Origin: Escherichia coli
GTDB lineage: Bacteria; Pseudomonadota; Gammaproteobacteria; Enterobacterales; Enterobacteriaceae
Reading direction: 5' to 3' (one strand)
Assembly: GCF_048403405.1 (NCBI RefSeq)
Contig: NZ_CP183129.1
DNA: 64,000 nucleotides
Both the position numbers and the translations under genes were made by a program. Each line of letters opens with the position of its first letter. Position 1 is the stretch's first letter. Shown here in pieces: positions 18,423 through 35,487 of the stretch. The notes beneath the pieces are model-generated. The model saw only the letters and a list, made by a program, of their open reading frames with translations. It had not been told where the DNA came from and did not search any database.

Positions 18423-21169
18423 TGCCTGTTGTTCCTACTACATCCGGACGTCAGGTGCAAAGTCGTGGTGTGCAAACCGGTGGTTTTCAGATCTTCGATG
18501 TTCCTCAAGCAGATCAGGTGCTGGCGAATGTCGCAGATCAGTATGCGGTGGCATATGGTGAAGCCAGGCAGAAAGCGAATGTTGCTATGGCCCAGGAGGC
18601 GTTACTGCAATTTAACCAATTTGCAGATGACCAGATTAACAACCCTGAAAGTGGGCTGATTTCTAAACAGGGTAAAAACGCTCTTGGTCAGAGTGACGCT
18701 GTTATGAAAAATATGCAGGAAAGGGCTCAGGCATTATTAGGCTCAATTCCTGAAAGTGAGGAAAGGAATAAATTATCCTTTCAACTCCAGCAGTCTATGC
18801 AGTCTTATTACAATCAGGCACGTCGATATGAAGTTGGGCAGTTTCAGCAATTCCAAGATCAAACGTATTTGTCAGGAAATGCATTGGCTGTCACTCAGTC
18901 TGCGGGGCTATATAGCGATAACCAAGCATTTGTCGATTTAGCCAAGCAGCGATTTGAATCTATTGATCAATACGCTGATGCGCATGGGCTTCCTGATGAG
19001 TGGCGTGTTCAGCAGAAAACTCAGCTCAAGGAACAAATGGGGCAGCAAGCATGGATAGGAAATATCGCTCAAAAATACAACGAGTTTCTTCAGGTTAATG
19101 GAGAGCCAGGGGATCTTGATGGTGTGAGTCGTGCAATATCACATGGTAATTCATTGGATGCTCGTGGTTTACGTAATAATAACCCTGGTAATATTGAAGC
19201 GAGCAAATCTAACCCGTGGGAAGGTCAGATCGGTAGCGATGGACGTTTTGCAACGTTTGCTACCCCTGAGCATGGAATCCGCGCGTTGGGTAAAAATATG
19301 TTGTCTTACCAGCGTCAAGGCTATGACACCGTTAGCGAGATTGTTAATCGCTATGCTCCGGCTAGTGATGGTAATAATACTGATGCTTATATTAGGGCAT
19401 TGTGTGGTGAGCTTGGTGTTGGGGAGAATGATCAGCTTGATATCTCTAACCCAAAGACACTAGCTGCTTTATGTGCTGGGATTATTAAACACGAAAATGG
19501 CAGTATGCCTTATAGCACCGAACAGCTTGAAACTGGTATCTCGGCAGCCCTTGGTCTAACTAACCTTGATTCACCTAAGCGTTATACAGGCAATGCGGCA
19601 TTTGATGCTATGAGCCCTCAAATGCAAATACAGGCATTGAGGCAGGCTAATGAGCTGAGAAATCAGTACCGCCAGCAGTATGCGGACCAGCTTAGCACCG
19701 TAGTTAAAGATGCATATTCAGCCCTTGATGAAGGATTGAAACCTGAGAAGTTACCTTCTGAGGACGATTTTATCCGGGCCAATGGTCCGCGCATTGGCGC
19801 TATGAAGTGGAAGGATATGCAGGCGCAGATACAATATGGAGGTGTCATTGGTGCCGCTAAAGACCTCACTCCAGAAGGACGACAAGACATTCTTGAACGT
19901 TTACGTCCACAGGATCCAAACGCTCCTGGATTTGCAGCTAACCAGCAACGCTGGGAGAAAATGCAGGCCAAATTTAAAGAGATGGATAGGGAGTGGGAGA
20001 TTCAGCAGGGAAGAAACAGGTTCGTGTCTTCAATGCAAAATAACTTCCCGCTGGACCCGAACGACAAAAACAATCAGGCAGCGGTAGACCGTTATTTCGC
20101 GCAGGATATCGCGCCTTCGTTTTCCATATCTGATCCGCAGAGCATCAATACACTGGTCACCGTCACAACTAAAAGCGGCATGATACCAACTCAGGTTAAA
20201 ACAATGCTTAACAGTGGAGCAACATCAAGAGATCCTGCGCTGGTTGTCCCGATGGCAAAATTCTACGGTCAGTTATTCGATAATAATCCGGCGGCAGCGG
20301 CAACACTTGATAAAAGTACGATGGCATTTTACGGCAAGGTTTACGATTATTCCCGCGCTGGCGTGCCGGAGGATAAGGCTGTTGATATGGCTTACAGCCA
20401 GGTGTTCCAACAGGATGACCGAATGAAACAGATGCTTTCCACTGCCATGCGAGACAAAAAATATGTCGCGGCGAGGGCAACTGCTGCACAAAATAACGCC
20501 AGCAGTCTGACTTCCTTTGGTTCGTGGTCTCCGGATATTACCGATCCAGGAAAATCAAATGCGGCCTATCAGCGAGATTACCAGACAATTTACGATGCTA
20601 ACTTTGTACAGACAGGTGGCGATGCAGAACAGGCTGAGAAAATGACCAATGCCATGATCAGAACCACCTGGGGAGTTTCTACGGTTAATGGCAAAGCAGA
20701 GGTTATGAAGTATGCACCTGAGGCATTGTACGGAGTAAATAATGGTGCTGGTAACTGGATACAGGGGCAGTGGGAGCAGGAAAAACGCGAGCTTAAATCA
20801 AAATCCTTTGGCGGTCCTCGCAGTGATACGGACTTAATACTTGTTTCTGATGGCCTTACGGCAAGGGATAGGAGTTATGCTGTTATGGTTTTACAGCCTG
20901 ACGCAAACGGAGCGATAGAACCGAGAAATTATATTGGAGAAAATGGTCTCCCTGTTCGTTTCAAGCCGGATCAGCTGACATCTCCAATGTACAGGCAAAC
21001 CATTAAGTTCCAGCAACAGCGTGTTGATGAGGCTAGAGTGCGGAGAGAAGGCAATCCGCTGCCGCAGTTCAGCAATAAAGATGGATATACTCCTCCAGAT
21101 CTGACCAAACCATTCGGTTATGGTTCAGCCAATTACCTTCCGAGCAATATATACGCAGGGGGCAAATAA
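18422..21169 (+). CDS. Internal virion / ejection protein (T7 gp15-like core protein)
   Basis: 915 aa, in the gp15 position; contains a conserved-looking block NNPGNIEASKSNPWEGQ...HGIRALGKNMLSY. Confidence 0.5.
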   Translation: MPVVPTTSGRQVQSRGVQTGGFQIFDVPQADQVLANVADQYAVAYGEARQKANVAMAQEALLQFNQFADDQINNPESGLISKQGKNALGQSDAVMKNMQERAQALLGSIPESEERNKLSFQLQQSMQSYYNQARRYEVGQFQQFQDQTYLSGNALAVTQSAGLYSDNQAFVDLAKQRFESIDQYADAHGLPDEWRVQQKTQLKEQMGQQAWIGNIAQKYNEFLQVNGEPGDLDGVSRAISHGNSLDARGLRNNNPGNIEASKSNPWEGQIGSDGRFATFATPEHGIRALGKNMLSYQRQGYDTVSEIVNRYAPASDGNNTDAYIRALCGELGVGENDQLDISNPKTLAALCAGIIKHENGSMPYSTEQLETGISAALGLTNLDSPKRYTGNAAFDAMSPQMQIQALRQANELRNQYRQQYADQLSTVVKDAYSALDEGLKPEKLPSEDDFIRANGPRIGAMKWKDMQAQIQYGGVIGAAKDLTPEGRQDILERLRPQDPNAPGFAANQQRWEKMQAKFKEMDREWEIQQGRNRFVSSMQNNFPLDPNDKNNQAAVDRYFAQDIAPSFSISDPQSINTLVTVTTKSGMIPTQVKTMLNSGATSRDPALVVPMAKFYGQLFDNNPAAAATLDKSTMAFYGKVYDYSRAGVPEDKAVDMAYSQVFQQDDRMKQMLSTAMRDKKYVAARATAAQNNASSLTSFGSWSPDITDPGKSNAAYQRDYQTIYDANFVQTGGDAEQAEKMTNAMIRTTWGVSTVNGKAEVMKYAPEALYGVNNGAGNWIQGQWEQEKRELKSKSFGGPRSDTDLILVSDGLTARDRSYAVMVLQPDANGAIEPRNYIGENGLPVRFKPDQLTSPMYRQTIKFQQQRVDEARVRREGNPLPQFSNKDGYTPPDLTKPFGYGSANYLPSNIYAGGK

Positions 21170-24100
21170 TGCCGATATATGAACAGGATCCTAAAGAGTT
21201 GCTTGGCGAGGATATTCAGCAAATAGCAGCACCTGATGACAGTAATTTCTATATGGAAACACCTTCTTTGCTTTCTGCTGTGAACCCATTTACCAGTGAT
21301 CAACGCGTTCAAAGGTCTAGACAAGCAGCATTTCGTATAGATAACACGCTGGGTAGCTTTATTGCCAGTGCTCCTTTCAGTCAGTTTGACAGGGTTGAAG
21401 GATATAACCCATTTGATAACGATGCAGCAGATATTAAAGGCTATGAAGATTTTGCAGATTCGTTTATCAACTCCGGTTCGCATGAAGAAACAATGGCAAT
21501 TAAACATCGAATCGATCAGCAGAGAGCTGACATGGAATACAATTCAGGCTTGGGATTTGCTGGTACAGTCTCTTCTGTAGCAATGAGATTAGCAGATCCA
21601 TTCAATGCGATTTCTATGTTTATTCCGTTCGGCGCTGTCGTTCGTGGCGGTCGTATTGCAGAAACAGCCGGACGTTTTGCTTTAGCCAATGCTGCTGGCA
21701 GTGTTGCTTCAGAGGCCGCATTGCAGGCCACTCAGGAAGCTCGCTCACCGATGGAGAGCGTATCGAACGTTGTTGTTGATGCTCTCGTTGGTGGGATCCT
21801 TGGTGCTGGTGCACAGCTACTTGCTGGACCTAGCGCGCGCGAGGCAGTGGTTAACTCAGTAGGTAATCATTTGCGAGGTATGGATTCTCCTCAAAGCATT
21901 GGTGCAGCTCAGGTTTTCAATACCACACTCGATCAGGAACAGCTTGCTGGACTTGGACTTGCTAACAAAACGTTGAGTGTCACTCCTGCTGGCCGCTTGG
22001 CGCAATCACCATCTCTTGTTTCCCGTCAGATTAACCAGCAGCTTGCCGAAAATAACTATTTCTTCGCCAAAAATGATGAGGGGTTGGCTACGTTTACGGC
22101 AGTCGAGACTAAGATTAAGCAATACGACGCCATGCTTTATAAGCAGATGGAAGCTACTCGTGATGCTTACCAGCAGTACAGCAAATCTGTCAGCGCCCGC
22201 GGCGTGAAGAGGATGAACTTTATTGATTTCAATGAAGCTGTTGGCATGGCTATGCGCCGTGGTGATCAGAGTGATATTCCTGAGGTTTCACAAGCAGCCG
22301 CCAGAATCCGCCCCATTTTTGAGACCACAAAAGCCCGTATGCAGGAATTGGGGATCCTTCCTGAGGATATCGATGTCGTGACGACGAAGAGTTATCTTCC
22401 CCGCATTTATAAGTTCGATAAGATACTTTCCGACCGCACTGAATTCAGAGGGCGAATTGCCAACTGGATACAAGGGATTAGTGCCAAAGGTGCTGACAAA
22501 GCAGGTCAGCGAATTGAAAAGATAAATTCATTGCTAAAAACTGCAGAGGAATCAGCACCGCGCGCTGATGCTCTCGCTAGTGAAATCGCTGAAGCGGAGA
22601 AATGGTCTGGTAAAAAAATTCTACTCATGGAAGAACTGGATAAACGAAATAAGCTTATATCTCAGGAGACTGACACACAGGCGCGTCTTACAAGAATAGA
22701 AAAAGAGTTGGCCGAGACTTCATCAGAAAAACTTCAGGCAAGAATGATGAAAGAAAGCTCTGACCTTAAAACACGCCTTGATGATATAGCGCAGGCAAAG
22801 AGTGAGCTTCCTGTCTATCAGCGCCATATGGAGTTGCTGGATAATCCACGGAAATATCGTTCTGAGCTTCGCCGACTGCAAAAACGGGCAAATTCAACCA
22901 CAAGGCTGAATGCAAGCCGCGAGCGAGCACTGAAGCAGATGGAGCCTCTATCCCGAGAGGAAGCAGAGGACGCTGCTGACGAGATCGTGAATAAAATAAT
23001 AGGCGCACCTTCCGGGCTTGTACCAGCCGATATTATCCCAGAGAGACTCGTTGGTCGGGCTGGTTTCACTAAAAGCCGAACGCTGCTTATTCCTGATGAG
23101 CGTATAGAAGATTTTCTTGAATCAGATGTTAACTACATCATGGAAAGTTATCTCCGGCAGGTGGCACCAGAAATTGAGCTGACTGCGCAGTTTGGCCGTA
23201 AAGATATGGGGGAGCAAATCCGTCAGGTTAGTGAGGAATATACCCGGCTAATAAAAGAGGCTAAAACACCTAAACGACGTGCAGCTCTTGAGAAGCAACG
23301 GGAGGCTGATATTAGGGATATTACGGCTATGCGTGACCGACTGCTTGGTACTTACGGCGCACCTCAAGATCCACGCAGTTTCTTTGTTCGTGCCGGGCGA
23401 GTTGCTAGGAATATTAACTTCCTCCGTTTGCTTGGTGGAATGACCGTCTCCGCTGCAACTGATCTGATGCGACCGATGATGCAGCATGGCCTGAGAAAAT
23501 CTCTCGGACCAATGGTAAGCATGCTTAAAAATATGGACTCAGTGAAAATTGCAACCAGGGATTTGCGAGAAATGGCAGTTGGGCTTGATTATGTCCTGTC
23601 TACGCGCACAAAGGCTATAGCGGATCTTACTGACCCCTATAGCCGGAGAAGCGCCGCTGAGCGAGGTCTGAACTGGATGACGCAGAAATTCGGTAACTGG
23701 ACGCTGATGAATCAGTGGAACAGCGCACTTAAATCATGGTCTGGGATGATAGTGCAGTCGAGGATACTTGACGCGGCTCGCCAAGTTTCTGCTGGTGGCA
23801 CGCTCTCCAAAAGTGAAATGCGGAAGATGGCACAGGTCGGCATCAATGAAGATGTTCTGCGCCGAATCGGGGAGCAATTCGGGAAGCACGGAGAGGATAT
23901 GGACGGGCTGTTAACCGGGCATAGTCATCTGTGGGATGACCGTTTCGCTAGAGAGATTTTCCAGTCTGCAGTGCTGAAAGATGTAGACTCAGTGATTGTA
24001 ACGCCTGGCGTAGGTGATACACCGCTGTTTTTTAGTAAAGAAGGCTGGAAGATGATCACGCAGTTCAAAACGTTTATCTTCGCACAGCATAACAGGGTGC

Positions 24101-24558
24101 TAGTATCTGGTATCCAGCAGGGCGATGCTGCATTCTATCTTGGTGCGCTTGGCACGATTGCGCTTGGCTCAATGGTCTATATGATGAAACAGAAGTTAAG
24201 CGGTCGCGATATCGACTACAGCTGGAATAACCTTGTGAAAGAGGGGATCGACCGGGGCGGAATGCTTGGCTGGCTCTCTGAGCCGCTGAATACCGTTGAG
24301 AACATAAGCGGCGGTAGGTTTGGTCTTGGCGCGATGTTTGGTGCGCCTCCGGTATCAAGGTTTCAGAGTCGTAATGCTATTGGTGCTTTACTTGGTCCTA
24401 CCTTTGATCTTGGCGGTGATGCCGCGACGGTTGCAAATGGTGTACTTAACGGAGAATTTGACAGCCAGCAAACCCACGCTGTCCGTAAAATGCTACCTTT
24501 TCAGAATCTGTGGGCGATATCACCATTACTAAATAAAGTTGAAGAGCAGATGAAATAG
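21169..24558 (+). CDS. Internal virion / ejection protein (T7 gp16-like)
   Basis: 1129 aa; Gly/hydrophobic-rich C-terminal region resembling the gp16 C-terminus as recalled. Confidence 0.55.
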   Translation: MPIYEQDPKELLGEDIQQIAAPDDSNFYMETPSLLSAVNPFTSDQRVQRSRQAAFRIDNTLGSFIASAPFSQFDRVEGYNPFDNDAADIKGYEDFADSFINSGSHEETMAIKHRIDQQRADMEYNSGLGFAGTVSSVAMRLADPFNAISMFIPFGAVVRGGRIAETAGRFALANAAGSVASEAALQATQEARSPMESVSNVVVDALVGGILGAGAQLLAGPSAREAVVNSVGNHLRGMDSPQSIGAAQVFNTTLDQEQLAGLGLANKTLSVTPAGRLAQSPSLVSRQINQQLAENNYFFAKNDEGLATFTAVETKIKQYDAMLYKQMEATRDAYQQYSKSVSARGVKRMNFIDFNEAVGMAMRRGDQSDIPEVSQAAARIRPIFETTKARMQELGILPEDIDVVTTKSYLPRIYKFDKILSDRTEFRGRIANWIQGISAKGADKAGQRIEKINSLLKTAEESAPRADALASEIAEAEKWSGKKILLMEELDKRNKLISQETDTQARLTRIEKELAETSSEKLQARMMKESSDLKTRLDDIAQAKSELPVYQRHMELLDNPRKYRSELRRLQKRANSTTRLNASRERALKQMEPLSREEAEDAADEIVNKIIGAPSGLVPADIIPERLVGRAGFTKSRTLLIPDERIEDFLESDVNYIMESYLRQVAPEIELTAQFGRKDMGEQIRQVSEEYTRLIKEAKTPKRRAALEKQREADIRDITAMRDRLLGTYGAPQDPRSFFVRAGRVARNINFLRLLGGMTVSAATDLMRPMMQHGLRKSLGPMVSMLKNMDSVKIATRDLREMAVGLDYVLSTRTKAIADLTDPYSRRSAAERGLNWMTQKFGNWTLMNQWNSALKSWSGMIVQSRILDAARQVSAGGTLSKSEMRKMAQVGINEDVLRRIGEQFGKHGEDMDGLLTGHSHLWDDRFAREIFQSAVLKDVDSVIVTPGVGDTPLFFSKEGWKMITQFKTFIFAQHNRVLVSGIQQGDAAFYLGALGTIALGSMVYMMKQKLSGRDIDYSWNNLVKEGIDRGGMLGWLSEPLNTVENISGGRFGLGAMFGAPPVSRFQSRNAIGALLGPTFDLGGDAATVANGVLNGEFDSQQTHAVRKMLPFQNLWAISPLLNKVEEQMK

Positions 24559-24559
24559 G

Positions 24560-25411
24560 ATGAAAAAAATAAATTTGTTTTTTGGCATAGTGCTTTCAAT
24601 AGTCTCTGTAAATCCTACAGCTGCCAGTTCATTGCAATGCAATAAGGATAACTTTGATGCATGCAAAACGTGCGAACAATTATCAAAGGCTATCGACTTA
24701 AAAGAACCTAATCGTGGCGATTACTATAGAGGGGCTTTATGGAATGGGCTTTACGCCTCTTATGTAATTAATTGCCCTGTGGTTGCAGAGAAGTTACTGA
24801 GCCATGGTGCTATACCATCATATGGCGGATATATGGGGTCTATGGGGGCGGTTCTGACAGGAAAATGGCCTCATAACAATGAATCAATAAATCTTTCATG
24901 GGCAGATTTGCTTATAAAACATGGATTTGATGTTAATAGGCATACGGGGAATTATAAATCAGCTACTGAAGTATGGGCTATAGATAAAAAACAGATTGAA
25001 TATAAGTCAGTTTTTGACAAGTTAATTCAATCCAGCGAAGTAAAACCACTCGATCCTTCAAGAAATTTAGAATGGTGTGCGTCTGAAGGGTATCGCTCAG
25101 TTGTCGTTTATTCCCTTAACTCATGTATAGAAAATGCTATAAAACGTTTGGATGACGGTGTTTCTTCAGCGTCTGATATTTCATCAGCAGCCGTAAATTC
25201 CTGTACTAGCGATGTAGAAAATTTCAATAAGCATTTGGCATGCAAAGCAGCTGTTAAAGAAAACTCTGATAAAGAGAGAAGCAACGTTTACCAGTTATTA
25301 ACCAGTGATAGTCAAATGAATAAAAATGTTATTGATATGCTGAAGGAAAGAAATATTGAAACGGTTCTTGAATTTAGAGCTGAAAATCGATCAGCGAAAA
25401 CTGCACAGTGA
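24560..25411 (+). CDS. Secreted hypothetical protein with ankyrin-like repeats (moron), AT-rich
   Basis: Signal peptide MKKINLFFGIVLSIVSVNPTAAS; two ankyrin-like segments (...AEKLLSHGAIPS..., ...ADLLIKHGFDVN...); start 1 nt after the gp16-like stop; terminator follows. Confidence 0.55.
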   Translation: MKKINLFFGIVLSIVSVNPTAASSLQCNKDNFDACKTCEQLSKAIDLKEPNRGDYYRGALWNGLYASYVINCPVVAEKLLSHGAIPSYGGYMGSMGAVLTGKWPHNNESINLSWADLLIKHGFDVNRHTGNYKSATEVWAIDKKQIEYKSVFDKLIQSSEVKPLDPSRNLEWCASEGYRSVVVYSLNSCIENAIKRLDDGVSSASDISSAAVNSCTSDVENFNKHLACKAAVKENSDKERSNVYQLLTSDSQMNKNVIDMLKERNIETVLEFRAENRSAKTAQ

Positions 25412-25417
25412 TCAAAC

Positions 25418-25442
25418 AGGCCGCTTTCGCGGCCTTGTTTTT
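25418..25442. terminator. Bidirectional terminator hairpin
   Basis: AGGCCGC-TTTC-GCGGCCT followed by TGTTTTT; hairpin core GGCCGCTTTCGCGGCC is identical to the one at 28670. Confidence 0.55.
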
Positions 25443-25602
25443 AACGAATGCCACCGCCGCCAGGGCGGGAATCCGCAGAACGCCCACCGCAGCGGGAGCC
25501 GTCAGCGGCAGTATCGCTGTCGTGCTGACAACGACCGGCAAAGGCCTGAGTTGAAGCTACCAGAGACAACAAAACGAACAGTGCAGCAAATGCTTTTTTC
25601 AT
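25441..25602 (-). CDS. Small secreted Gly/Cys-containing peptide (53 aa) with its own promoter (moron)
   Basis: Internal start MKKAFAALFVLLSLVASTQAFA gives a clean signal peptide; promoter-like hexamers upstream and terminator downstream. Confidence 0.45.
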   Translation of the reverse strand: MKKAFAALFVLLSLVASTQAFAGRCQHDSDTAADGSRCGGRSADSRPGGGGIR

Positions 25603-25615
25603 TGTGAAATTTCCA

Positions 25616-25643
25616 TCTATAAGCCACCTCAATGTGGCGTCAA
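25616..25643 (-). promoter_or_regulatory. Candidate sigma70 promoter for the small secreted peptide (-35 TTGACG, -10 TATAGA, 16-nt spacer)
   Basis: Minus-strand hexamers at 25638-25643 and 25616-25621. Confidence 0.35.
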
Positions 25644-25672
25644 TGAGTGTAGCACTGACTTTTGTTTCGTCC

Positions 25673-25695
25673 ACAAAAAAGCCCGCAGCGCGGGC
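25673..25695 (-). terminator. Minus-strand rho-independent terminator
   Basis: GCCCGC-AGC-GCGGGC followed on the minus strand by TTTTTT, immediately after the stop at 25696. Confidence 0.5.
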
Positions 25696-25929
25696 TTACT
25701 TTTCTTCAGGTTTGTTGTCTTCAGATTTCTTCTTGATGCTTGGTTTTTGTCTAAGACCGAAAATACCAGCCACTGCAACAACTGTACCGATCACTGTGCC
25801 AGCTAGAACTTCATGACCTGTTAAACCTAATAATGTTGCACAAGCTACTGTAAAAATAGTTGCACTCAGGCCAAACCACTGCCCACGTTTATCTCTATTA
25901 ATAGCCCCGTCAAGTGCCTTTTCCTCCAT
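25696..25929 (-). CDS. Small two-TM membrane protein (possibly the C-terminal part of a frameshifted larger gene)
   Basis: 77 aa with two hydrophobic segments and a Lys-rich tail; the same frame stays open upstream to ~26073. Confidence 0.45.
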   Translation of the reverse strand: MEEKALDGAINRDKRGQWFGLSATIFTVACATLLGLTGHEVLAGTVIGTVVAVAGIFGLRQKPSIKKKSEDNKPEEK

Positions 25930-25958
25930 TTTCTGGCGGTGAGCAAACTCCTTCTCCG

Positions 25959-26243
25959 TCAGCTGGAAGATGCGTTCGGGGGCATCAGGTAAAATATCCT
26001 GATACCCGCGAAGCAGATAGGGGGAGGAAGCGGACCCTGAAACGCATGGTGAGCGACAACTATCTCCTGAATTTCAGGGCGATCAAGAACTCTTGTGAAG
26101 GCATCTGGGTGTTGAATGATCTCGTTACTTAGCCCTTCCTCAACTTCCTCGAACTCAGTTTCTTCGTTATCACTTGGTTGCCCAATAGATTTTTGCATAT
26201 TTGTCGAAGGACATTCCTTTAGCTTCTGGTTTTCCTCTTGCAT
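25959..26243 (-). CDS. Acidic hypothetical protein (possibly the middle part of a frameshifted gene)
   Basis: 94-aa ORF overlapping the upstream ORF by 74 nt in another frame; C-terminus degenerates into Pro-rich sequence near a G5 run at ~26019-26026. Confidence 0.3.
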   Translation of the reverse strand: MQEENQKLKECPSTNMQKSIGQPSDNEETEFEEVEEGLSNEIIQHPDAFTRVLDRPEIQEIVVAHHAFQGPLPPPICFAGIRIFYLMPPNASSS

Positions 26244-26496
26244 TTGAGTTTTTCCCTGTCACTATTGCCCATTTTCCGCCAGCAGGCGCTGCAATTTTTT
26301 TTCCGTTCTTTACTATATATTCAGCATAAACACGATTTTCTGACCGTCTGAGATCGTCTCCGACCATATTCATGTCTCTTGATATAACTTTGACGACAGA
26401 GTCTCGGTTTAAAGCCTTGGCATAGTTGGAGCCAGGAACGATACCCAAAGGGGTGCCAGACTCTATAGCCAGCTCCTTGACATATCTTCTGCTCAT
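26170..26496 (-). CDS. Hypothetical protein, putative DNA-binding/regulatory N-terminal module
   Basis: ATG at 26496 after GAGGT; MSRRYVKELAIESGTPLGIVPGSNYAKALNRDSVVKV... Confidence 0.45.
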   Translation of the reverse strand: MSRRYVKELAIESGTPLGIVPGSNYAKALNRDSVVKVISRDMNMVGDDLRRSENRVYAEYIVKNGKKIAAPAGGKWAIVTGKNSNARGKPEAKGMSFDKYAKIYWATK

Positions 26497-26617
26497 ATGA
26501 ACCTCAACCAATCGACTTTACCAATCGGGTAATTTTAAACATGAGTATAATGCTTTTAACTGCAACGAGTGTAAACAATTATTGATAATTGTAGGCACAT
26601 CCCTGTGCCGCCGCCCG

Positions 26618-27310
26618 TCAGAAGAACCCTGCTTTGTCGTTGATGTACTCCGCGTGCGTCTGGATATCACGCAGGCATTTGCTCACACCGACGATGTAGC
26701 AGAACATGGTGGTCAACTCCGCCGCCGCGCCCGATACGTCGTGCCCGTCTTCCTGTAACTGGTTTAGCAGATTCATCAGCAGTGAGTTCTCCGTCAGGCC
26801 GAGAACACCAGACGGCGAATGAATCAGGCTGCGGTAGCCGGGCTTCAGTGGGGCGCTGTAGGTTTTGTTCTCTACCTTCATTGCCTGCATCACTGCTGAT
26901 GCTGTGGCGTTGGCTACCTGGTCGGCAACCATCTTTATGCGTTCTTCCTGCGGGAGCGAGTTTTTAATGTAACTTCCGGTGCGGCGGATCTGAGGAAGAA
27001 CCTCACCTGTAACCCATTCAAGAAATCTGAATGCTCTCGTTCCCTCAGTCATTGCCTCTTTGCAACGCAGAATAAGGATGTAGAGACCTGATTCTGAAAC
27101 GATGGATAGTTCTTGTATTCCACCAGGGGTCTGTATTGAATACAGCCCCTTTTTGTTCCAGCCTTTTTTATCAAGTTTTCTCGCTTGTGTAACATCAATA
27201 TTCAAAGCATTGCACACATCTTTGGTGACAAACCAAGGTTCTCCGTCAATCATGAACATACGGATCTGGCAGGATGACTCAAAGGAAAAGATGGAAGGTT
27301 TGGTATTCAT
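26618..27310 (-). CDS. Antirepressor (Bro-N domain plus KilA-C/ANT C-terminal domain)
   Basis: Start MNTKPSIF after AAAGGTGA; Bro-N-like N-terminus (FMIDGEPWFVTKDVCNALNI...) and ANT-like C-terminus, as recalled. Confidence 0.7.
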   Translation of the reverse strand: MNTKPSIFSFESSCQIRMFMIDGEPWFVTKDVCNALNIDVTQARKLDKKGWNKKGLYSIQTPGGIQELSIVSESGLYILILRCKEAMTEGTRAFRFLEWVTGEVLPQIRRTGSYIKNSLPQEERIKMVADQVANATASAVMQAMKVENKTYSAPLKPGYRSLIHSPSGVLGLTENSLLMNLLNQLQEDGHDVSGAAAELTTMFCYIVGVSKCLRDIQTHAEYINDKAGFF

Positions 27311-27669
27311 AGCGATCACCTTTGTAGTTAGGTTAATCACCACCGCTGAGACCAATCAGATGGTGGTGAACTGTGCAGAGTTGGTCTTACCGGCTACAAA
27401 GGAACCCGGCGCACCTTTCGGTGCCCCCACACAGCCCACCATAGAATAGGTGCGCTTTACACATAAAAAAACCGCTTATGCGGCATATGTGCCTCTGTAG
27501 TAATCCGGGAGACCAATCCCGGCACTGGATTTTGCCAGTGCCCGATTACTATGGCACAAGAGGAGTGCAATGTAAATTTACCGAAAAGGTAATAATAAAT
27601 GCATAACTCACGTTATTTCAACCCTATATGGTTTGATTTATCCCATTTCAGAAAATACCTGCCTATTTT

Positions 27670-27699
27670 TTTGCCAGTATGCGTATACTTTCGATAGAA
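27670..27699 (+). promoter_or_regulatory. Candidate sigma70 promoter (-35 TTGCCA, 18-nt spacer, -10 TAGAAT) for the 27718 operon
   Basis: Hexamers read directly from the sequence; palindrome site 5 abuts the -10. Confidence 0.4.
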
Positions 27700-27701
27700 T
27701 G

Positions 27702-27716
27702 TTTACCCTAGAGGTA
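27702..27716. promoter_or_regulatory. Palindrome TTACC-CTAGA-GGTAG (operator-like site 5, one arm imperfect)
   Basis: Lies between the -10 hexamer and the start codon, an operator-like position. Confidence 0.4.
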
Positions 27717-27717
27717 G

Positions 27718-28173
27718 TTGGGGGTGCCCGTGAACACGAAGAGAGCTACAGTAATGCAGCATTTGAGGAAATCAGAAAAAAATAAAGACCATGAAATATT
27801 GAGTAAGGCCATTGTTCGGGCTTCCAATAATACTGTTATACCTCATGCTGAAGAGTCTGGACAGAAATTTCTTATTCGGTATTTCACTGAAAATAGTGCA
27901 GTTGAGGAGATTTTAAAACATCAGGGAGGGGAATTTAAATGTGGAAAACTGGCAGATTATGTTCGTCGTGAAACGTCTGAACAAGAAGTATATTATGCTG
28001 ATATTAATCATAAGTCAGGTGTGAAAATTGTAATAGGCTATTACACAACTCCCAAAAATGTTATGCATGAGGTCCCAAAGATGTCCGTCGAGAAATCTCA
28101 TGCAATCTCGCGCAGGATGTTTGCACGCACTGCCGAAGATATGGCTCAGGAGCTCTACGACGATGCTGAATAA
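27718..28173 (+). CDS. Hypothetical protein with acidic C-terminus; candidate antitoxin/immunity partner of the downstream YafO-like gene (ATG alternative at ~27754)
   Basis: 151-aa ORF, AT-rich; its stop overlaps the start of the next gene (ATGCTGAATAA). Confidence 0.45.
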   Translation: MGVPVNTKRATVMQHLRKSEKNKDHEILSKAIVRASNNTVIPHAEESGQKFLIRYFTENSAVEEILKHQGGEFKCGKLADYVRRETSEQEVYYADINHKSGVKIVIGYYTTPKNVMHEVPKMSVEKSHAISRRMFARTAEDMAQELYDDAE

Positions 28174-28477
28174 ATTCCAGGGGTTGGTTCACCCTGGAAT
28201 TTTTGGGAAGGACCCTGAGCTAATACCTATCAAAAACGCGTTCATAGATCACTGGCGCTACGGTCATCATAAGGATTTCGGAAAGGACACTCTGTTTCGG
28301 GATCCACCGAAAGAAATGCTGGAATATCACATACGCCACGTTCACGTAAACATCGGAAACTATACTGACAAGTTTGGTGAGAGCGGTACGGACAATGCTG
28401 GAAAAACTGGGCGTCTGGGAAGAAAGACAAGACCACTAACAAGCATAAAAAGATCCCAACCAGTGACGTGTATGTGA
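28163..28477 (+). CDS. YafO-like toxin, N-terminal part (gene appears frame-split)
   Basis: FGKDTLFRDPPKEMLEYHIRHVHV resembles the recalled YafO motif FGRDALYDD...ERVAHIHL. Confidence 0.4.
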   Translation: MLNKFQGLVHPGIFGKDPELIPIKNAFIDHWRYGHHKDFGKDTLFRDPPKEMLEYHIRHVHVNIGNYTDKFGESGTDNAGKTGRLGRKTRPLTSIKRSQPVTCM

Positions 28478-28668
28478 TTTATCTGGTCACATCTGAACGC
28501 CATGCCTTCCTTCTGGATTATTGGGATGAACCAGCACATAAGACAGTAGAAATTGACGAGCAGAAGCAAAAATTAGTTGTCGAGTGTGACAGAATTTTGC
28601 GGCTGAAAAAGTTAGAATCCATGCCGCGCGATGCTAGTTTGTGGGACCCAGAATTTTACGACTGTTAA
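28468..28668 (+). CDS. YafO-like toxin, C-terminal part in the -1 frame
   Basis: YLVTSERHAFLLDYWDEPAHK resembles recalled YafO HLVYCQGAFDEQAWLLIAILKPEPHK; overlaps the previous ORF by 10 nt. Confidence 0.35.
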   Translation: MYVIYLVTSERHAFLLDYWDEPAHKTVEIDEQKQKLVVECDRILRLKKLESMPRDASLWDPEFYDC

Positions 28669-28669
28669 T

Positions 28670-28692
28670 GGCCGCTTTCGCGGCCTTTAAAT
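28670..28692. terminator. Bidirectional terminator hairpin
   Basis: GGCCGC-TTTC-GCGGCC followed by TTTAAATTT; same hairpin sequence as at 25419-25434. Confidence 0.5.
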
Positions 28693-28950
28693 TTACCGGG
28701 TTTGTTTTCGTAATTGTTCGGCACAATAGTCGAGATGTGTTTGCAGATCCCGCATAGACATCTGTGAGCTGGTGACGTAGTTAATCAGTGCAGTCAGTTC
28801 GGCAAGTGGGCCATCGACATTAAATCCATCCTTATCGAGATCCCGGAGTAATTTCATCAAGTGCGATCCCTCCACCAGTGACCTGACGCCTCCCGGCGTG
28901 TGAATCCTTTCGGTAAATCCGTCTTCCAGTGGATAGTGATACTGCTGCAT
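28693..28950 (-). CDS. Stand-alone KilA-C/ANT C-terminal domain protein (paralog of the antirepressor C-terminus)
   Basis: Internal ATG at 28950 after GGAGAAG; MQQYHYPLEDGFTERIHTPGGVRSLVEGSHLMKLLRDLDKDGFNV... aligns with the C-terminal ~85 aa of the antirepressor at 26618-27310. Confidence 0.6.
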   Translation of the reverse strand: MQQYHYPLEDGFTERIHTPGGVRSLVEGSHLMKLLRDLDKDGFNVDGPLAELTALINYVTSSQMSMRDLQTHLDYCAEQLRKQTR

Positions 28951-29026
28951 CTTATCTTCTCCATGCAATAACTGTATGTTTATACAGTAACAAATAATTT
29001 GTTTGCTATCCAGCACGTTTTGCAAA

Positions 29027-29041
29027 TTACCTGAAAGGTAA
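29027..29041. promoter_or_regulatory. Palindrome TTACC-TGAAA-GGTAA (operator-like site 6) in the divergent region upstream of the tailspike gene
   Basis: Perfect palindrome; followed by ATATCTATTCGTA (also beside site 1) and TATGTGGTT-N5-GGTAATA. Confidence 0.45.
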
Positions 29042-29145
29042 TATCTATTCGTATTTACAGCCTTTCTATCCATATGTGGTTTTTCAGGTAATAGAATAAC
29101 CAGATATGCGGCGCAACGGGTGCTGCGACTATCTGGAGATTTAAC

Positions 29146-31797
29146 ATGACGGTCTCAACCGAAGTTGACCACAACGAATACACTGGTAACGGAGCTACGA
29201 CATCATTTCCGTATACCTTCCGTATTTTCAAAAAATCCGACCTGGTTGTTCAGGTGTCTGACCTGAACGGGAACGTAACAGAATTGGTTCTGGATACTGA
29301 CTACACAGTAACCAATGCTGGAGGATATAATGGCGGTAATGTAATTCTGTCGAAGGCGTTGGCTAACGGTTATCATATTTCTATATCACGAGAGCTCCCG
29401 GTTACGCAGGATACTGATTTGCGTAATCAGGGTAAGTTCTTCGCTGAGGTACATGAAGACGCGTTCGATAAACTGACAATGCTTATTCAAAAGTGTTTTT
29501 CATGGATGAGGTTAGCACTTATAAAACCAAGCATTCTGGCTAACTATTATGATGCAAAAAATAATAAGATATCAAATCTAGCAAATGCCACTGACAGAAA
29601 CGATGCTGTCAATAAAGGTTATGTTGATGATCTTTTTACTGGAGGTGTAACGCCTACACCTAACAGCGTTAAAAACGATATTTTTACAAATCACCAAAGA
29701 AAGATTGTAGCTACGATGCCGCTTCTTTTTCCTGAATATGATGCGATTATGGCTGCTAACCCGTCAGCAACTTATATGTATCCTCAAGGATTCTGCGTTA
29801 GCGAAGATTTGATATACATCACTTATCCATTTGAGCCTAAACAGACGAATAATGTCGTCGCAGTATTTAACATATCTGGTATTTATCAAGGTTATTTCTA
29901 TGTTCAGGCTGGCGGCCCAGGCTTCGCTGCTGAAGGAATCGTGGTTACGTCAGACTATGGCCCCAAAAAAATGTTTGTTGGTCACACAAACGGAATACTG
30001 CGTGAATTTAATATGGAGGGGGCATTATACGGAAGCAATCTGCCTCTTGTACAAAACCATGATGTTGGATTATTCAACCAGTTCAGCTACAGAAGAGGTA
30101 TATGGCTCGTTGAGCAGAATGCGCCAGAAGTAGGACAGAAAATCACAAGAACTGTACTTGCAGTGTTCGACAGTGGTTTCAATCGCCTGTCAACTATAAC
30201 GCTGCCGTTACATGATGTTGGGTATGTAACTAAAAGCACCTCACCTTATGCGCCTTATTTCAACAAGCGTCAGGGTATTGCGGTAGGTGATAACTACTTT
30301 GTCTGCGGCTATGGCGGCTTCATAGCTGATGGGGCAGGAAGCGCAGGATATAACGAATATCAGGGCAGCAAAGTTTTTAACCCTGACGGTACAAAGCGAA
30401 CTGAATCAATGCTTCATCCTCAGGCCATGATGGATTTAATGAAAGCCGCAGGATTGAACGTCACTCGCATAGAAAATGAAGGCGTTTGTGTTTCTCAGGA
30501 TGGAAAATCCATTTATTCACTTTACATTCATCAGGAAAGAACTGGCTCTGAACCTTACAATTCAGGTTTGGTTATTTTCGAAGATTTCTCCACTGATAAA
30601 GATGCTATCGATTTTACACCTGCATCCAGGCTTTACCGCGGATTTGATATCGATCACGCGAGCATTGGGGTATATCCCCGTAGTGCGAAGGGGATTGTTA
30701 ACCCTGTAGATGGTACGTTGTTCACTAACATGACTGAAATTCTTCGCTATATGCAGGAGATGAGTCAGAAGGCATTTAATTTTTACACAGGGACTGTCAG
30801 CATTGCTGATATATCTGGCGTGGCAATCCCTTCCAGCACATATGTTGAAATACTGAATGCGAATAATCAGACTTTTATAGTCAACTATTATTCATCTGAT
30901 AGTGGTATTAGTTATTTGGTTGCAACTAATCCTTCTGGTGACTTTGTATTTGTGCGCCAGCGACCGGCACAGTGGGCATCTAACTTAACCATTCAGCAAA
31001 ACGCAGATCCTGATACAAACCAATTAAACCGCATCACTGCATCATCATATGCCGGTGCAACTACAAACTCTCAGAAAATATTGGTCCTTGACCAGCAGGC
31101 TACAGCTAGCGCAAATAGCTTGGTATTGGGCGGTAGTTCTTCTGTGTTTAGGTCTGCCACCACGGTGGATATTGCATGCAACAGCGACCCGACAGCATTG
31201 GGAGGAACCATACGCTGGCGGTTTTATGATACAGGTCTTCGCCCGTTTGCTGACAATACCTATAATTTTGGTCAGGCATCGTTTCGTATTAAAGACGCCT
31301 ACTTTGCAAATGCCCCAACCGTTTCATCAGATGCCACGCTGAAAACCAATCCCGAGGCAATATCAGATTTAAGTGAAATGCTTTCTTCTGATAGAGACAG
31401 CATTCTTGATGCCTGGGGCGATATTTCTGTTGTGGCGTATCGATGGCTCGACGCTATATCCATGAAGGGCGATGGTGCCAGATGGCATTTTGGCGTCATG
31501 GCTCAGCAGGTAAGGGATGTATTCTTGGCGCACGGAATTGATGGAACCAGATTTGGCCTTCTTTGCTATGACGAGTGGGATGATATTTTTGAGCCGGTAA
31601 TCGCGACTAAAGAGATTACCGATACGTCTGGTGAGTTGGTCACCGTCGAATATGACACCGGAGAACAGAGGCTGGTTAAAAAAGCGGGTAGTTCATGGGG
31701 TATACGGCCTGACCAGTGCGCTTGGCTTGAGGCTGCATATCAGCGCCGTCGATGCGATCGTATTGAAGAGCGACTCGAACTATTGGAATCAAAATAA
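29146..31797 (+). CDS. Tailspike protein with epsilon15/CBA120-type N-terminal particle-binding domain and C-terminal self-cleaving intramolecular chaperone (peptidase S74-like) domain
   Basis: N-terminus MTVSTEVDHNEYTGNGATTSFPYTFRIFKKSDLVVQV as recalled for this tailspike family; C-terminal ~156 aa (from ~31327) with SDATLK, YRW, FGVMAQQV blocks typical of endosialidase-chaperone domains. Confidence 0.8.
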   Translation: MTVSTEVDHNEYTGNGATTSFPYTFRIFKKSDLVVQVSDLNGNVTELVLDTDYTVTNAGGYNGGNVILSKALANGYHISISRELPVTQDTDLRNQGKFFAEVHEDAFDKLTMLIQKCFSWMRLALIKPSILANYYDAKNNKISNLANATDRNDAVNKGYVDDLFTGGVTPTPNSVKNDIFTNHQRKIVATMPLLFPEYDAIMAANPSATYMYPQGFCVSEDLIYITYPFEPKQTNNVVAVFNISGIYQGYFYVQAGGPGFAAEGIVVTSDYGPKKMFVGHTNGILREFNMEGALYGSNLPLVQNHDVGLFNQFSYRRGIWLVEQNAPEVGQKITRTVLAVFDSGFNRLSTITLPLHDVGYVTKSTSPYAPYFNKRQGIAVGDNYFVCGYGGFIADGAGSAGYNEYQGSKVFNPDGTKRTESMLHPQAMMDLMKAAGLNVTRIENEGVCVSQDGKSIYSLYIHQERTGSEPYNSGLVIFEDFSTDKDAIDFTPASRLYRGFDIDHASIGVYPRSAKGIVNPVDGTLFTNMTEILRYMQEMSQKAFNFYTGTVSIADISGVAIPSSTYVEILNANNQTFIVNYYSSDSGISYLVATNPSGDFVFVRQRPAQWASNLTIQQNADPDTNQLNRITASSYAGATTNSQKILVLDQQATASANSLVLGGSSSVFRSATTVDIACNSDPTALGGTIRWRFYDTGLRPFADNTYNFGQASFRIKDAYFANAPTVSSDATLKTNPEAISDLSEMLSSDRDSILDAWGDISVVAYRWLDAISMKGDGARWHFGVMAQQVRDVFLAHGIDGTRFGLLCYDEWDDIFEPVIATKEITDTSGELVTVEYDTGEQRLVKKAGSSWGIRPDQCAWLEAAYQRRRCDRIEERLELLESK

Positions 31798-33796: not shown

Positions 33797-33817
33797 TAAA
33801 TAATTGAGTGGGAATGA
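33797..33817 (+). other. guaA: Prophage right junction (attR region) carrying the orphan 3' end of guaA (ATT GAG TGG GAA TGA = IEWE-stop)
   Basis: In-frame stop TAA then ATA ATT GAG TGG GAA TGA; E. coli GuaA ends ...TIEWE (recalled); followed by a strong terminator and then yfgI, the K-12 neighbour of guaA. Confidence 0.45.
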
Positions 33818-33843
33818 TTTTGATCCCTGCACTATGAATGAAC

Positions 33844-34985: not shown

Positions 34986-35295
34986 TATTCCTTGTTATAC
35001 ACATTACGAAAAATAAGACATTTAAGATCATCAAAAAAGGAAAGTAAATGTATTGCGTATTAAGGAATAGATTAAATTTATTAAAATTCATGTGGAAAAT
35101 AATTTATAAAAATACATCATTAAAACATATGTATTAATTTTATATTTATTTCGCAGCCAAACAGGATAAACATCAGTCAGGACAAAGACGTAAAATTTAA
35201 GATGAAAGAATATCTGCCGCTTTGATAATCCCAAAGAGCAAAAGCATCCGACAGCGAGGTGCCGTTATGTTCTGTGAAAGTGGAGAAGGTAACCG

Positions 35296-35487
35296 CTAAC
35301 GTTGTACCGGTGATTCGACGGAGAGTGTGGATTGCTGAGCTTCTTTTTTGCTCTGATGGTGCTGCCATGCACCGACGGACGAGTAGATAAAACGGCCAAA
35401 GAAGAAGATAAAGCTGATGAGCAGTACGATACGGGTCATGCGACTGTTAAATCGGTGTCGTTTTCGCATACTGGTTGCCTGACTCAC
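35296..35487 (-). CDS. yfgG: YfgG, small membrane protein
   Basis: 63 aa, single TM; size and synteny match K-12. Confidence 0.75.
   Translation of the reverse strand: MSQATSMRKRHRFNSRMTRIVLLISFIFFFGRFIYSSVGAWQHHQSKKEAQQSTLSVESPVQR

Follow-up and report, generated by a model that had tools for sequence, protein, structure and literature searches.

A phiV10/epsilon15-like prophage integrated at E. coli guaA carries, between its last ejection-protein gene and its tailspike gene, a 4586-bp induction-control region with two antirepressor genes, an arrangement already familiar from related phages. We consider it likely that this interval (positions 24560-29145 of the window, the 64,000-nt stretch of DNA analysed here) corresponds in this phage family to the P22 'ant moron' or immunity-I region and consists of a regulatory backbone and three cargo slots shaped by mosaic recombination. 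The gene for the 1129-aa DUF919/gp16-like ejection protein ends at 24558 and the tailspike ORF starts at 29146. Both strands are used, with the 283-aa gene and the 139-aa/YafO-like pair on the plus strand and the 53-aa peptide, DUF2335, 108-aa, Bro-N and 85-aa genes on the minus strand (Table 1).

Table 1. Features of the interval between the ejection-protein and tailspike genes, in window coordinates.
Position	Strand	Feature	Details
24560..25411	+	Slot A cargo, 283-aa predicted periplasmic protein	Starts 1 nt past the ejection-protein gene stop
25418..25435	+	Intrinsic terminator closing the late-operon/slot A transcript	7-pair hairpin (6 G-C), then T-run
25441..25602	-	53-aa small peptide, predicted secreted or membrane-anchored	phrog_14503 'membrane associated protein'
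25679..25697	both	Bidirectional intrinsic terminator in the gap between DUF2335 and peptide genes	8-pair hairpin (6 G-C), T-runs on each strand
25696..26243	-	Slot B cargo, DUF2335 membrane-protein gene, pseudogene here	1-nt deletion in G-run at 26019
26170..26496	-	Slot B cargo, 108-aa protein	Upstream of the DUF2335 gene, overlapping; phrog_10654
26618..27310	-	Second antirepressor, Bro-N::Ant fusion	Bro-N residues 16-106; SPC32H-Ant-like C-terminal domain residues 149-225
27359..27446	-	C4-type antisense RNA in the Bro-N gene leader	Rfam RF01695, 78.6 bits (gathering score 45)
27465..27541	-	isrK-like small RNA with a1/b1 sites	Rfam RF01394, 74.7 bits (gathering score 50)
27548..27576	-	Promoter-like site of isrK-like RNA	TTTACA-17-CATAGT, extended TG, 9/12 matches
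27593..28692	+	Slot C moron cassette, 1100 bp	Promoter, 139-aa gene, YafO-like gene, terminator
27671-27700	+	Slot C promoter	TTGCCA-18-TAGAAT, 10/12 matches
27754..28173	+	139-aa protein	phrog_9503; GC 39.2%; gene overlaps toxin gene by 11 nt
28163..28668	+	YafO-like toxin gene, pseudogene here	1-nt deletion at 28391, frame changed past residue 76
28670..28685	+	Intrinsic terminator closing the slot C cassette	6 G-C pair hairpin, then T-run
28693..28950	-	ant, 85-aa small antirepressor	Orthologue of SPC32H Ant and phiV10 p24
28970..28989		LexA (SOS) box	AACTGTATGTTTATACAGTA; overlaps ant promoter -10 element

A sequence-only reading had described an island of lower GC and mixed strand orientation, divided by hairpin terminators, and these observations were borne out. 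Island GC is 44.0%, the lowest in the prophage (mean 49.9%, minimum 46.4% across 402 other 4586-bp windows), although the tailspike gene is AT-rich like the island (43.7%). The low value resides in the variable genes (GC 37-45%; GC3 0.29-0.39 in the three genes measured), and the backbone elements, comprising both antirepressor genes and the RNAs, have a normal GC of 46-57%. Twelve terminator-like sites were found compared to 5.0 ± 2.0 in shuffled sequences, four of them strong (25418-25435; 25679-25697, both strands; 27471-27484, minus strand; 28670-28685). Some elements that the reading described merely as hairpins are the isrK-like and C4 RNA genes and the LexA box. Promoter-like sites in the region were not enriched (13 versus 10.8 ± 3.7 expected), and the promoters given here are consensus matches.

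The first antirepressor is the 85-aa gene next to the tailspike gene, which had been taken for a stand-alone KilA-C gene. Its product has no Pfam match and instead matches the crystallised SPC32H Ant (PDB 5d50_E, HMMER E 1.4e-46 over residues 2-84); phiV10 p24 is itself annotated as similar to epsilon15 gp19. We found ant in all 12 compared loci at 64-100% identity, with orthologues in Morganella and Serratia at 36-39%. The upstream box is the sole LexA-box match in the 64-kb window, with none in shuffles, and is overlapped by a promoter-like site at 29008-28979; in 58 of 65 ant orthologues a CTGT-N8-ACAG motif precedes the start codon by 21-24 nt. This prophage's repressor gene lies just beyond the window edge, and the repressor of EC.W1-9, a 99.5%-identical phage, matches SPC32H Rep (5d50_A, 4e-42). 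According to PMC9638917, which cites Kim 2016, SPC32H Ant disrupts the Rep tetramer, and the LexA-controlled Ant of Salmonella prophages has been reviewed (PMC7380047). In a lysogen, LexA on the box would hold ant off; upon DNA damage and loss of LexA, Ant would be made and would break the Rep tetramer, leading to prophage induction. The Ant match, the conserved LexA-type box and the Rep match of the EC.W1-9 repressor are thus held in common with the SPC32H Rep-Ant switch (Kim & Ryu 2013 and Kim et al. 2016, cited via PMC7380047 and PMC9638917). In contrast to that switch, the E. coli phages add an RNA-controlled Bro-N::Ant fusion, and the Salmonella E15-type relative has no second antirepressor.

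The fusion joins a Bro-N domain (Pfam 4.2e-13) to a C-terminal domain that matches the same Ant structure (5d50_E, 9e-14) and shares 40% identity with the 85-aa gene product. This C-domain is conserved in 11 of the 12 compared loci, whereas the N-domain is swapped among relatives. ZX5 ORF4 is 80% identical to the fusion protein, and its overexpression lowered lysogeny and shifted the phage to lysis (PMC9782041). Upstream of the Bro-N gene, both RNAs score over the Rfam gathering cut-offs in the window, phiV10, TL-2011b, FDAARGOS_497, Tyrion and a Klebsiella phage; the overlapping c4-a1b1 Rfam model scored 39.9 bits, under its gathering score of 46.7. C4 loop b' (CCUUUGUAG) is complementary to 9 nt over the Shine-Dalgarno/ribosome-binding site of the Bro-N gene, and loop a' (AGACCAA) to 7 nt about 40 nt upstream of that site, just past C4. 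Loops and targets co-vary across all 17 loop types (119 instances), with mean matches of 8.1 and 7.1 nt to a type's own targets versus 4.6 and 4.2 nt to those of other types. The isrK-like RNA ends in its own terminator at 27471-27484 and carries an a1 site (UUGGUCU) complementary to C4 and a b1 site with one mismatch in the window. The promoter-like site ahead of it would, from its spacing, place the transcription start at the RNA's first base.

In the immI operon of P1 and P7, which comprises the c4 antisense RNA, icd and ant (Rfam families RF01695 and RF03163), C4 occupies the antirepressor leader and its a'/b' loops match a1/b1 upstream and a2/b2 downstream at the ribosome-binding site. 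The window has the same C4 placement and loop/target layout, and in P1/P7 too loop/target changes define specificity types. It differs in that icd is absent and b2 covers the antirepressor's own ribosome-binding site, in that the protein is a Bro-N::Ant fusion rather than P1 Ant1/2, and in that the element is a podovirus prophage rather than a plasmid prophage. With Gifsy-1 the shared feature is the order of isrK, leaky terminator, structured RNA and antirepressor gene, the mechanism of its isrK-orf45(STnc1160)-anrP locus having been described (PMC4825925). The Bro-N transcript would accordingly begin with the isrK-like RNA and pass a leaky terminator into the C4-type RNA; C4 would keep Bro-N untranslated, by analogy with P1/P7 c4-icd-ant, and the decoy targets a1/b1 of the isrK-like RNA may relieve this block, by analogy with Gifsy-1. 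Whether C4 and isrK repress or activate is inferred from P1 and Gifsy-1. If the C4 block holds, the loop types would serve as RNA-level immunity specificities.

The P22 immunity-I region comes after ejection-protein gene 16. It occupies a position equivalent to the interval described here, as the late-operon segment immediately ahead of the tailspike gene, and likewise surrounds an antirepressor that has control elements of its own, an antisense RNA among them, with fast-changing non-structural genes; TL-2011b bears a P22-type arc/ant/sar cassette in the slot described here. In P22-like phages this region (sieA, mnt, arc, ant, sar) belongs to the late operon and precedes the tailspike gene, and its non-structural gene set falls into ten types in sixteen genomes (PMC2629481). 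The control elements are unrelated, Mnt/Arc/sar in P22 as opposed to LexA and isrK/C4 RNAs here, and in the present prophage the antirepressors are of SPC32H-Ant type and the virion genes of epsilon15/phiV10 rather than P22 type.

The proposal of a variable slot held among relatives: its length in 11 of them ranges from about 0.7 kb (Salmonella E15) and 1.7 kb (phiV10) up to 5.9 kb (TL-2011b), and its contents differ, with YafO-type toxins, DUF4760, DUF1778 and arc/ant/sar cassettes as other occupants. Parts of the region are matched in 573 of 5426 E. coli genomes and at least 80% of it in 25. On the other hand, a simple insertion into a T7-like gene order is contradicted by the 85-aa gene, found at the locus in every relative examined, and by the antirepressor gene with isrK/C4 RNAs present in most. 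In the Salmonella E15 and Morganella relatives, ant occurs without the Bro/C4 module, which suggests that the second antirepressor is an ancient accessory rather than universal core. We retain the notion of a cargo slot for the AT-rich variable genes in three slots, but not for the backbone, which is conserved regulatory machinery.

That the whole 4.6 kb is instead a horizontally acquired cargo island for defence, exclusion or host interaction, inserted between the gp16-like and tailspike genes, appears improbable. The depressed GC and shifting content favour such an island, as do the toxin-antitoxin-like pair, the predicted secreted proteins and the presence of the P22 exclusion gene sieA in the equivalent region (PMC2629481). 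However, about 1.5 kb of it (ant, the Bro-N::Ant gene, the isrK and C4 RNAs and the LexA box) is lysis-lysogeny control machinery, conserved in relatives and of normal GC; no PADLOC defence model matched the island proteins, which leaves the suggestion of defence cargo unsupported, and the toxin and DUF2335 genes are frameshifted in the window. Under the favoured reading of a regulatory backbone with cargo slots, mosaic recombination at terminators and gene ends would have set the AT-rich cassettes around the backbone.

Slot A holds the 283-aa gene (GC 37.0%, GC3 0.29), whose product had been called a secreted ankyrin-like protein. The protein is predicted to be periplasmic; it matches phrog_6118 and no Pfam family, and its homologues, confined to 22 protein clusters that are all from Enterobacterales, share a hydrophobic, signal-like N-terminus and 8 invariant cysteines. 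In the AF2 model, with a pLDDT of 76.7 overall and 92.8 in the C-terminal domain, the C-terminal half is confidently predicted as a helical bundle with disulfide-forming cysteines. The N-terminal half bears a weak fold resemblance to ankyrin. The gene directly follows that of the ~1130-aa ejection protein in E. coli, Klebsiella, Serratia and Morganella, with the Serratia (58% identity) and Morganella (40% identity) homologues in the same position; because this placement is kept across genera, an ejection-protein-linked function fits better than random cargo. One such function, at present a long shot, is that of an ejection-module partner: the protein could, for instance, inhibit the muralytic ejection protein in the periplasm and thereby block superinfection as T4 Spackle does. 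Beyond the position next to the ejection-protein gene in four genera, the signal-like N-terminus and the cysteines, this idea draws on the lysozyme-like domain of the neighbouring 915-aa ejection protein and on weak AFDB fold matches that include DUF1311/LprI-type lipoproteins.

Of the three abutting short ORFs that had been reported, one is the 108-aa gene, and the other two (25959-26243 and 25696-25929) are pieces of a single DUF2335 gene broken by a 1-nt deletion. When restored, the DUF2335 gene encodes a 167-aa protein with Pfam DUF2335 (2.9e-15) and phrog_3996 matches, and the gene is unbroken in annotated relatives. The 108-aa protein had no match in Pfam, NCBIfam, PADLOC or PDB, phrog_10654 being its only assignment; its gene occurs in FDAARGOS_497 alone among the 12 compared loci, and the pair is also found in phage ZX5. 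Slot B would be read through from the Bro transcript.

Slot C would be a promoter-to-terminator cassette of the 139-aa and YafO-like toxin genes. It stands in place of about 31 bp in empty-slot relatives, with junctions at 27592 and 28693 (compared to B19429, ZX5 and 20AR0300), and the distance from C4 to the tailspike start is 1700 bp here, against 655 bp as the median over 51 viral loci. A toxin-antitoxin-like pair, as had been suggested, is present, but its second gene is split by the 1-nt deletion. Intact copies of that gene are named 'YafO family toxin' by PGAP. The protein itself matches neither Pfam nor NCBIfam; it is 31% identical to TL-2011b gp44 (7e-24), one relative at 66% identity has PF13957, and hhalign aligned it to residues 14-128 of K-12 YafO (E 1.2e-3, probability 19%). 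The E. coli type II pair yafN-yafO likewise consists of two overlapping genes with the toxin second, and its FG(K/R)D and HxH motifs align with the YafO-like protein; it differs in that this similarity is weak, the window's upstream gene is unrelated to yafN and the toxin gene here is frameshifted. The 139-aa protein matches nothing in Pfam or PDB and does not resemble YafN; its position alone makes it a putative antitoxin.

Judged from their reading frames, the DUF2335 and YafO-like genes are inactivated in this copy. A sequencing error at both sites, leaving the DUF2335 gene and the toxin-antitoxin pair intact and active in the real genome, is doubtful though not negligible. Both changes are 1-nt losses in short homopolymer runs (G6 in EC.W1-9 to G5 in the window by alignment, and AA to A), and in the annotation of all 25 near-identical E. 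coli copies both genes are unbroken. Yet only 3 gaps separate the window from EC.W1-9 over 15 kb at 99.46% identity, namely these two frameshifts and an intergenic one at 28691, and none falls in the approximately 10 kb of structural genes. Furthermore, the 24,001-bp host flank is 100.0% identical and equal in length to other E. coli sequence, including several complete genomes, which argues that the assembly is not error-prone.

Between slots A and B lies the gene for the 53-aa peptide, semi-conserved at 9 of the 12 compared loci and preceded by a weak promoter-like site at 25643-25616. The peptide is WP_000708858, a protein that recurs in the annotation of many E. coli prophages; its N-terminus is signal-like and its mature part contains 2 cysteines. 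Homology with phiV10, TL-2011b, B19429 and 2/0 picks up again at 25416, and these alignments indicate that the terminator closing the slot A transcript is a recurrent recombination junction as well.

The island at 24560-29145 is the epsilon15/phiV10-family counterpart of the 'ant moron' of P22-like phages, a region that varies in length, is dispensable for morphogenesis and often holds an antirepressor with its controls together with an exclusion gene (Casjens and colleagues, PMC2629481). Like the P22 region, the island is bounded by syntenic morphogenetic genes, and its content changes from one related phage to another. The control parts differ, however: those of the island are an SPC32H-type Ant with a LexA box and an RNA module of the P1/Gifsy type.

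We found that the right-hand part of the prophage, 33.8 kb long, is included in the window, with ~30 kb of E. coli chromosome after it. The prophage genes are ordered as in the Uetakevirus-like podoviruses phiV10, TL-2011b and vB_EcoP_ZX5, and the stretch 14307-29297 is 99.5% identical to Escherichia phage EC.W1-9. The attP core of phiV10/epsilon15-type phages, published as ATTGAGTGGGAATGATT (PMC9782041), has a single exact copy in the window, which marks the right prophage end. Beyond it, the host flank from yfgI through the hyf operon (34000-58000) is 100.0% identical, with zero length difference, to E. coli TUM14771, whose guaA attachment site is empty; GC in this flank dips to 0.37 at 35001-36000, near yfgG and pdeF. 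Inside the prophage, the terminase and portal genes flank a gene for tRNA-Arg (anticodon TCT).

The island bounds proposed in the sequence-only reading proved exact: the upstream 1129-aa gene, encoding a DUF919/gp16-like internal virion protein, ends at 24558, with the 283-aa ORF beginning at 24560 and that of the tailspike at 29146. Its remarks on composition and layout also held, with 44.0% GC across the 4586 bp compared to a mean of 49.9% (none below 46.4%) in other prophage windows of equal length, genes on both strands, and 12 terminator-like sites versus 5.0 ± 2.0 expected. The adjoining tailspike gene is itself AT-rich like the island (43.7% GC) and is a mosaic: identity to EC.W1-9 extends as far as 29297, and for the receptor-binding part the match is to E. 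coli strain 2/0.

Comparing the island with EC.W1-9 and with E. coli copies annotated by PGAP gave a list of eight genes instead of ten. Across 24000-28688, one substitution and two 1-nt deletions are all that separates the window from EC.W1-9. The deletion at 26019 (G6 to G5) splits the DUF2335 gene, which is why three abutting short ORFs had been read there, and the one at 28391 (AA to A) cuts the YafO-like protein short after residue 76. Both fall in short homopolymer runs, where error can arise; since the assembly shows no indel in 24 kb of host DNA or in ~10 kb of adjacent structural genes, both frameshifts are probably real mutations.

Genes, RNAs, control sites and cargo slots of the island, with neighbouring prophage features
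Feature	Coordinates	Strand	Content
tRNA-Arg gene	8703-8779	-	
915-aa ejection protein	18422-21169	+	
283-aa protein	24560-25411	+	
53-aa signal-bearing peptide	25441-25602	-	
DUF2335 membrane protein	25696-26243	-	frameshifted
108-aa protein	26170-26496	-	
Bro-N protein	26618-27310	-	
C4 antisense RNA	27359-27446	-	
isrK-like RNA	27465-27541	-	
Intrinsic terminator	27484-27471		3' end of isrK-like RNA
Promoter-like site	27576-27548		
139-aa protein	27754-28173	+	
YafO-like protein	28163-28668	+	frameshifted
85-aa protein (ant)	28693-28950	-	
LexA-type box	28970-28989		
Tailspike gene	29146-31797	+	
attP core	33803-33819		
Slot A	24560-25417		283-aa gene in the window
Slot B	25698-26592		108-aa and DUF2335 genes in the window
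Slot C	27593-28692		1100-bp cassette, own promoter to own terminator
Slot C promoter	27671-27700		consensus match
Slot C terminator	28670-28685		

The conserved backbone includes ant, the 85-aa gene, which all 12 compared loci carry; prophages of Morganella and Serratia have it too, with 36-39% identity. Residues 2-84 of its product match the crystallised Ant of Salmonella phage SPC32H (PDB 5d50_E, E 1.4e-46). It had been called a stand-alone KilA-C domain gene, a label that fails because the protein has no Pfam match; in Pfam neither the 85-aa nor the Bro-N protein matched the KilAC/ANT family, and the gene is an SPC32H-type Ant. In SPC32H, Ant disassembles the tetramer of the Rep repressor (as cited in PMC9638917), and Ant synthesis comes after LexA cleavage (reviewed in PMC7380047). 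A LexA-type box, AACTGTATGTTTATACAGTA, stands ~20 nt upstream of the ant start codon and overlaps its promoter-like -10 element, with 3 mismatches to the 20-nt consensus and zero chance matches in shuffled sequences; a CTGT-N8-ACAG motif occurs at equal distance from the start in 58 of 65 ant orthologues. The EC.W1-9 repressor matches SPC32H Rep (E 4e-42), and in the source genome the repressor gene sits outside the window, ~0.2 kb off its left end. As judged from these sequence features, ant probably encodes an SOS-triggered antirepressor.

A second antirepressor in the region, the Bro-N protein, would be gated by antisense RNA. Its residues 16-106 match Pfam Bro-N (PF02498, i-Evalue 4.2e-13), and residues 149-225 form an Ant-like domain that matches 5d50_E (E 9e-14) and shares 40% identity with the 85-aa protein. 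Among relatives the N-terminal domain is swapped (Bro-N, Ant or ORF6N) while the C-terminal domain is kept at 86-99% identity. The whole protein is 80% identical to ORF4 of ZX5, overexpression of which lowers prophage titre and repressor transcription (PMC9782041). Upstream of the Bro-N gene and on the same strand we found two Rfam RNAs, a C4 antisense RNA (RF01695, 78.6 bits versus a gathering score of 45, full-length at model positions 1-87) and an isrK-like RNA (RF01394, 74.7 bits versus a gathering score of 50). The c4-a1b1 target motif overlaps the isrK-like RNA at 39.9 bits, under its gathering score, and the start of transcription predicted for the promoter-like site is the first base of the isrK-like RNA. 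The isrK/C4 pair also occurs in phiV10, TL-2011b, FDAARGOS_497, Enterobacter phage Tyrion and a Klebsiella phage, and neither RNA is annotated in any of the relatives' records examined. Over these RNAs the phiV10 record (locus L002, 6834-6913) has just a misc_feature and a terminator; in ZX5 (locus L142, 1779-1892) an ORF named 'ash family protein' is annotated over C4.

We located the pairing sites by searching for exact complementary stretches; RNAduplex on long flanks returned uninformative whole-length pairings. In the window, the C4 loop CCUUUGUAG (b', 27394-27402) has its complement in CUACAAAGG (b2, 27320-27328), a site overlapping the Shine-Dalgarno region that lies 6 nt before the Bro-N ATG. 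For a second single-stranded C4 stretch, AGACCAA, the complement UUGGUCU is present twice, once just downstream of C4 and once in an isrK loop. In phiV10 and TL-2011b the loops differ (CCUUUUAG and ACGCCAA), and every target site has changed to match exactly. We then searched IMG/VR with the conserved C4 stem; the 119 instances parsed from it comprise 17 loop combinations. All 17 match their own downstream targets, over a mean of 8.1 nt for the b stretch and 7.1 nt for the a stretch, compared to 4.6 nt and 4.2 nt for the targets of other loop types, and in these instances the position of the downstream b2 site is always that of the ribosome-binding site or just ahead of it. These pairings of C4 with its targets are what the sequences show.

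The c4-icd-ant module of phages P1 and P7 is an immunity system, and the arrangement of C4 and targets in the island has the same logic. The layout of RNAs and antirepressor also resembles isrK-orf45-anrP of Gifsy-1 (PMC4825925). By analogy with P1/P7 and Gifsy-1, we infer that C4 represses translation of the Bro-N gene and that the isrK-like RNA would relieve this block. The C4 loop types could serve as a simple sequence marker to predict which of this family's many prophages in E. coli, Klebsiella and Enterobacter would cross-control one another's antirepressors.

Around this backbone the content varies. The interval measures 0.7-5.9 kb across 12 loci, of which three carry the 283-aa gene, one the DUF2335 and 108-aa pair and two the 139-aa/YafO-like pair, with a distant YafO paralogue alone in one further locus. 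Some part of the region is matched by 573 of 5426 complete E. coli genomes, and at least 80% of it by just 25. Alignments with relatives break recurrently at 24558/24560, 25416, 25697, 26593, 26860 or 27025, 27307 or 27333, 27592 and 28693, and three cargo slots are recognised (A, B and C in the table). Elsewhere slot A holds a 46-aa, ~98-aa, 103-aa or 204-aa gene or two small genes, and slot B is nearly empty or contains a DUF4760 gene, other small genes, or a YafO-type toxin gene and its partner gene. The slot C cassette stands where B19429 has ~31 bp, and the distance from C4 to the tailspike start is 1700 bp in the window versus a median of 655 bp in 51 viral loci. As in a moron cassette, slot C has its own predicted promoter (a consensus match at 10 of 12 positions) and terminator, and the base composition of the cargo deviates: 37.0% GC in the 283-aa gene, 39.2% in the 139-aa gene and 43-45% in the others, compared to ~50% for the prophage and to 49.2% in the Bro-N gene, 48.8% in ant and 57% in the peptide gene. 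The slot A and slot C terminators (25419-25436 and 28670-28687) have 18 identical nucleotides, GGCCGCTTTCGCGGCCTT, which may be a recombination hook or a coincidence. With their recurrent junctions, the three slots are useful places to search for new accessory genes.

What the cargo does is less readily named. For the defence cargo envisaged earlier, none of the eight island proteins matched a defence-system model in PADLOC-DB 2.0 (E ≤0.01); nor did any of the eight match NCBIfam. Pfam gave no match for the 283-aa, 139-aa, YafO-like, 108-aa, 85-aa and 53-aa proteins, and PDB sequence searches with the 139-aa, 108-aa and YafO-like proteins gave nothing significant. PGAP assigns the YafO-like protein to the YafO toxins, a family to which it may belong. 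The protein shares 31% identity with gp44 of TL-2011b and aligns with K-12 YafO in BLASTP (E 0.002 over 54 aa) and, across most of K-12 YafO, in hhalign (E 1.2e-3, with a probability of just 19%); one relative with 66% identity carries PF13957. The toxin-antitoxin-like pair proposed for slot C lacks an intact toxin ORF in the window, the YafO-like gene being frameshifted at 28391. Its neighbour, the 139-aa protein, is an antitoxin candidate by its position only, with no similarity to YafN or to the 108-aa protein encoded upstream of a YafO-type toxin in strain 2/0. The island's own 108-aa protein was considered as a common antitoxin partner and rejected, as it has no similarity to the strain 2/0 protein either. 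The identifiable cargo in this copy is partly decayed.

The 283-aa protein of slot A belongs to a family of 22 clusters found in Enterobacterales only, with a hydrophobic N-terminus and eight invariant cysteines. Ankyrin proteins dominate its Foldseek PDB list at a non-significant best E of 0.2, and those in AFDB are likewise non-significant (E 0.017-0.06); these fold matches concern the N-terminal half, and Pfam ANK gave no match even at E ≤10. The earlier ankyrin-like label is thus not confirmed. The C-terminal 119 residues are predicted with confidence to form a helical bundle (pLDDT 92.8), for which PDB yielded no specific relative. A DUF1311/LprI lysozyme-inhibitor identity for this half was rejected, there being no Pfam LprI match to the protein or its relatives, and we found no sequence or fold link to a known inhibitor. 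The gene also directly follows a ~1130-aa ejection-protein gene in Serratia and Morganella prophages, with identity falling to 40% at the Morganella end of the range, and this conserved position is the main hint that it may act in exclusion. Nearby, the 915-aa ejection protein has a lysozyme/transglycosylase-like domain (residues 247-399; PDB 7q47_A, 3.7e-15; PHROG 'tail injection transglycosylase'). In phage T4, Spackle blocks gp5. Because the 283-aa gene adjoins ejection-protein genes across genera and the 915-aa neighbour has this domain, its product might, speculatively, block the lysozyme-bearing ejection protein of an incoming phage in a Spackle-like manner. We consider it unlikely that the protein represents an undescribed periplasmic superinfection-exclusion or immunity family tied to DUF919-type ejection-protein modules.

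The view of the region as a variable cargo slot was therefore right in part: the content does vary among relatives, but conserved regulatory machinery makes up the centre, the identifiable cargo has decayed in part and there is no known defence system. For annotation, we suggest treating the region as a control centre for prophage induction and immunity instead of an assortment of uncharacterised cargo genes. Of the new findings, the most useful are that the isrK and C4 RNAs had escaped annotation, that their specificity types co-vary, and that the 283-aa gene keeps its place beside the ejection-protein genes across genera.

Some relatives carry the antirepressor parts in greater number. E. 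coli KKo003 (locus L011, 3274-5322) has the module spanning the peptide gene, Bro-N and the RNA leader a second time, in inverted orientation, so that two antirepressor units with RNA leaders face each other. TL-2011b (locus L003, 4769-5953) has a P22-type arc-ant cassette in the same slot, beside its isrK/C4-Bro module, with a match to the sar antisense RNA at 4940-5007 (44.8 bits); TL-2011b therefore has three antirepressor genes.
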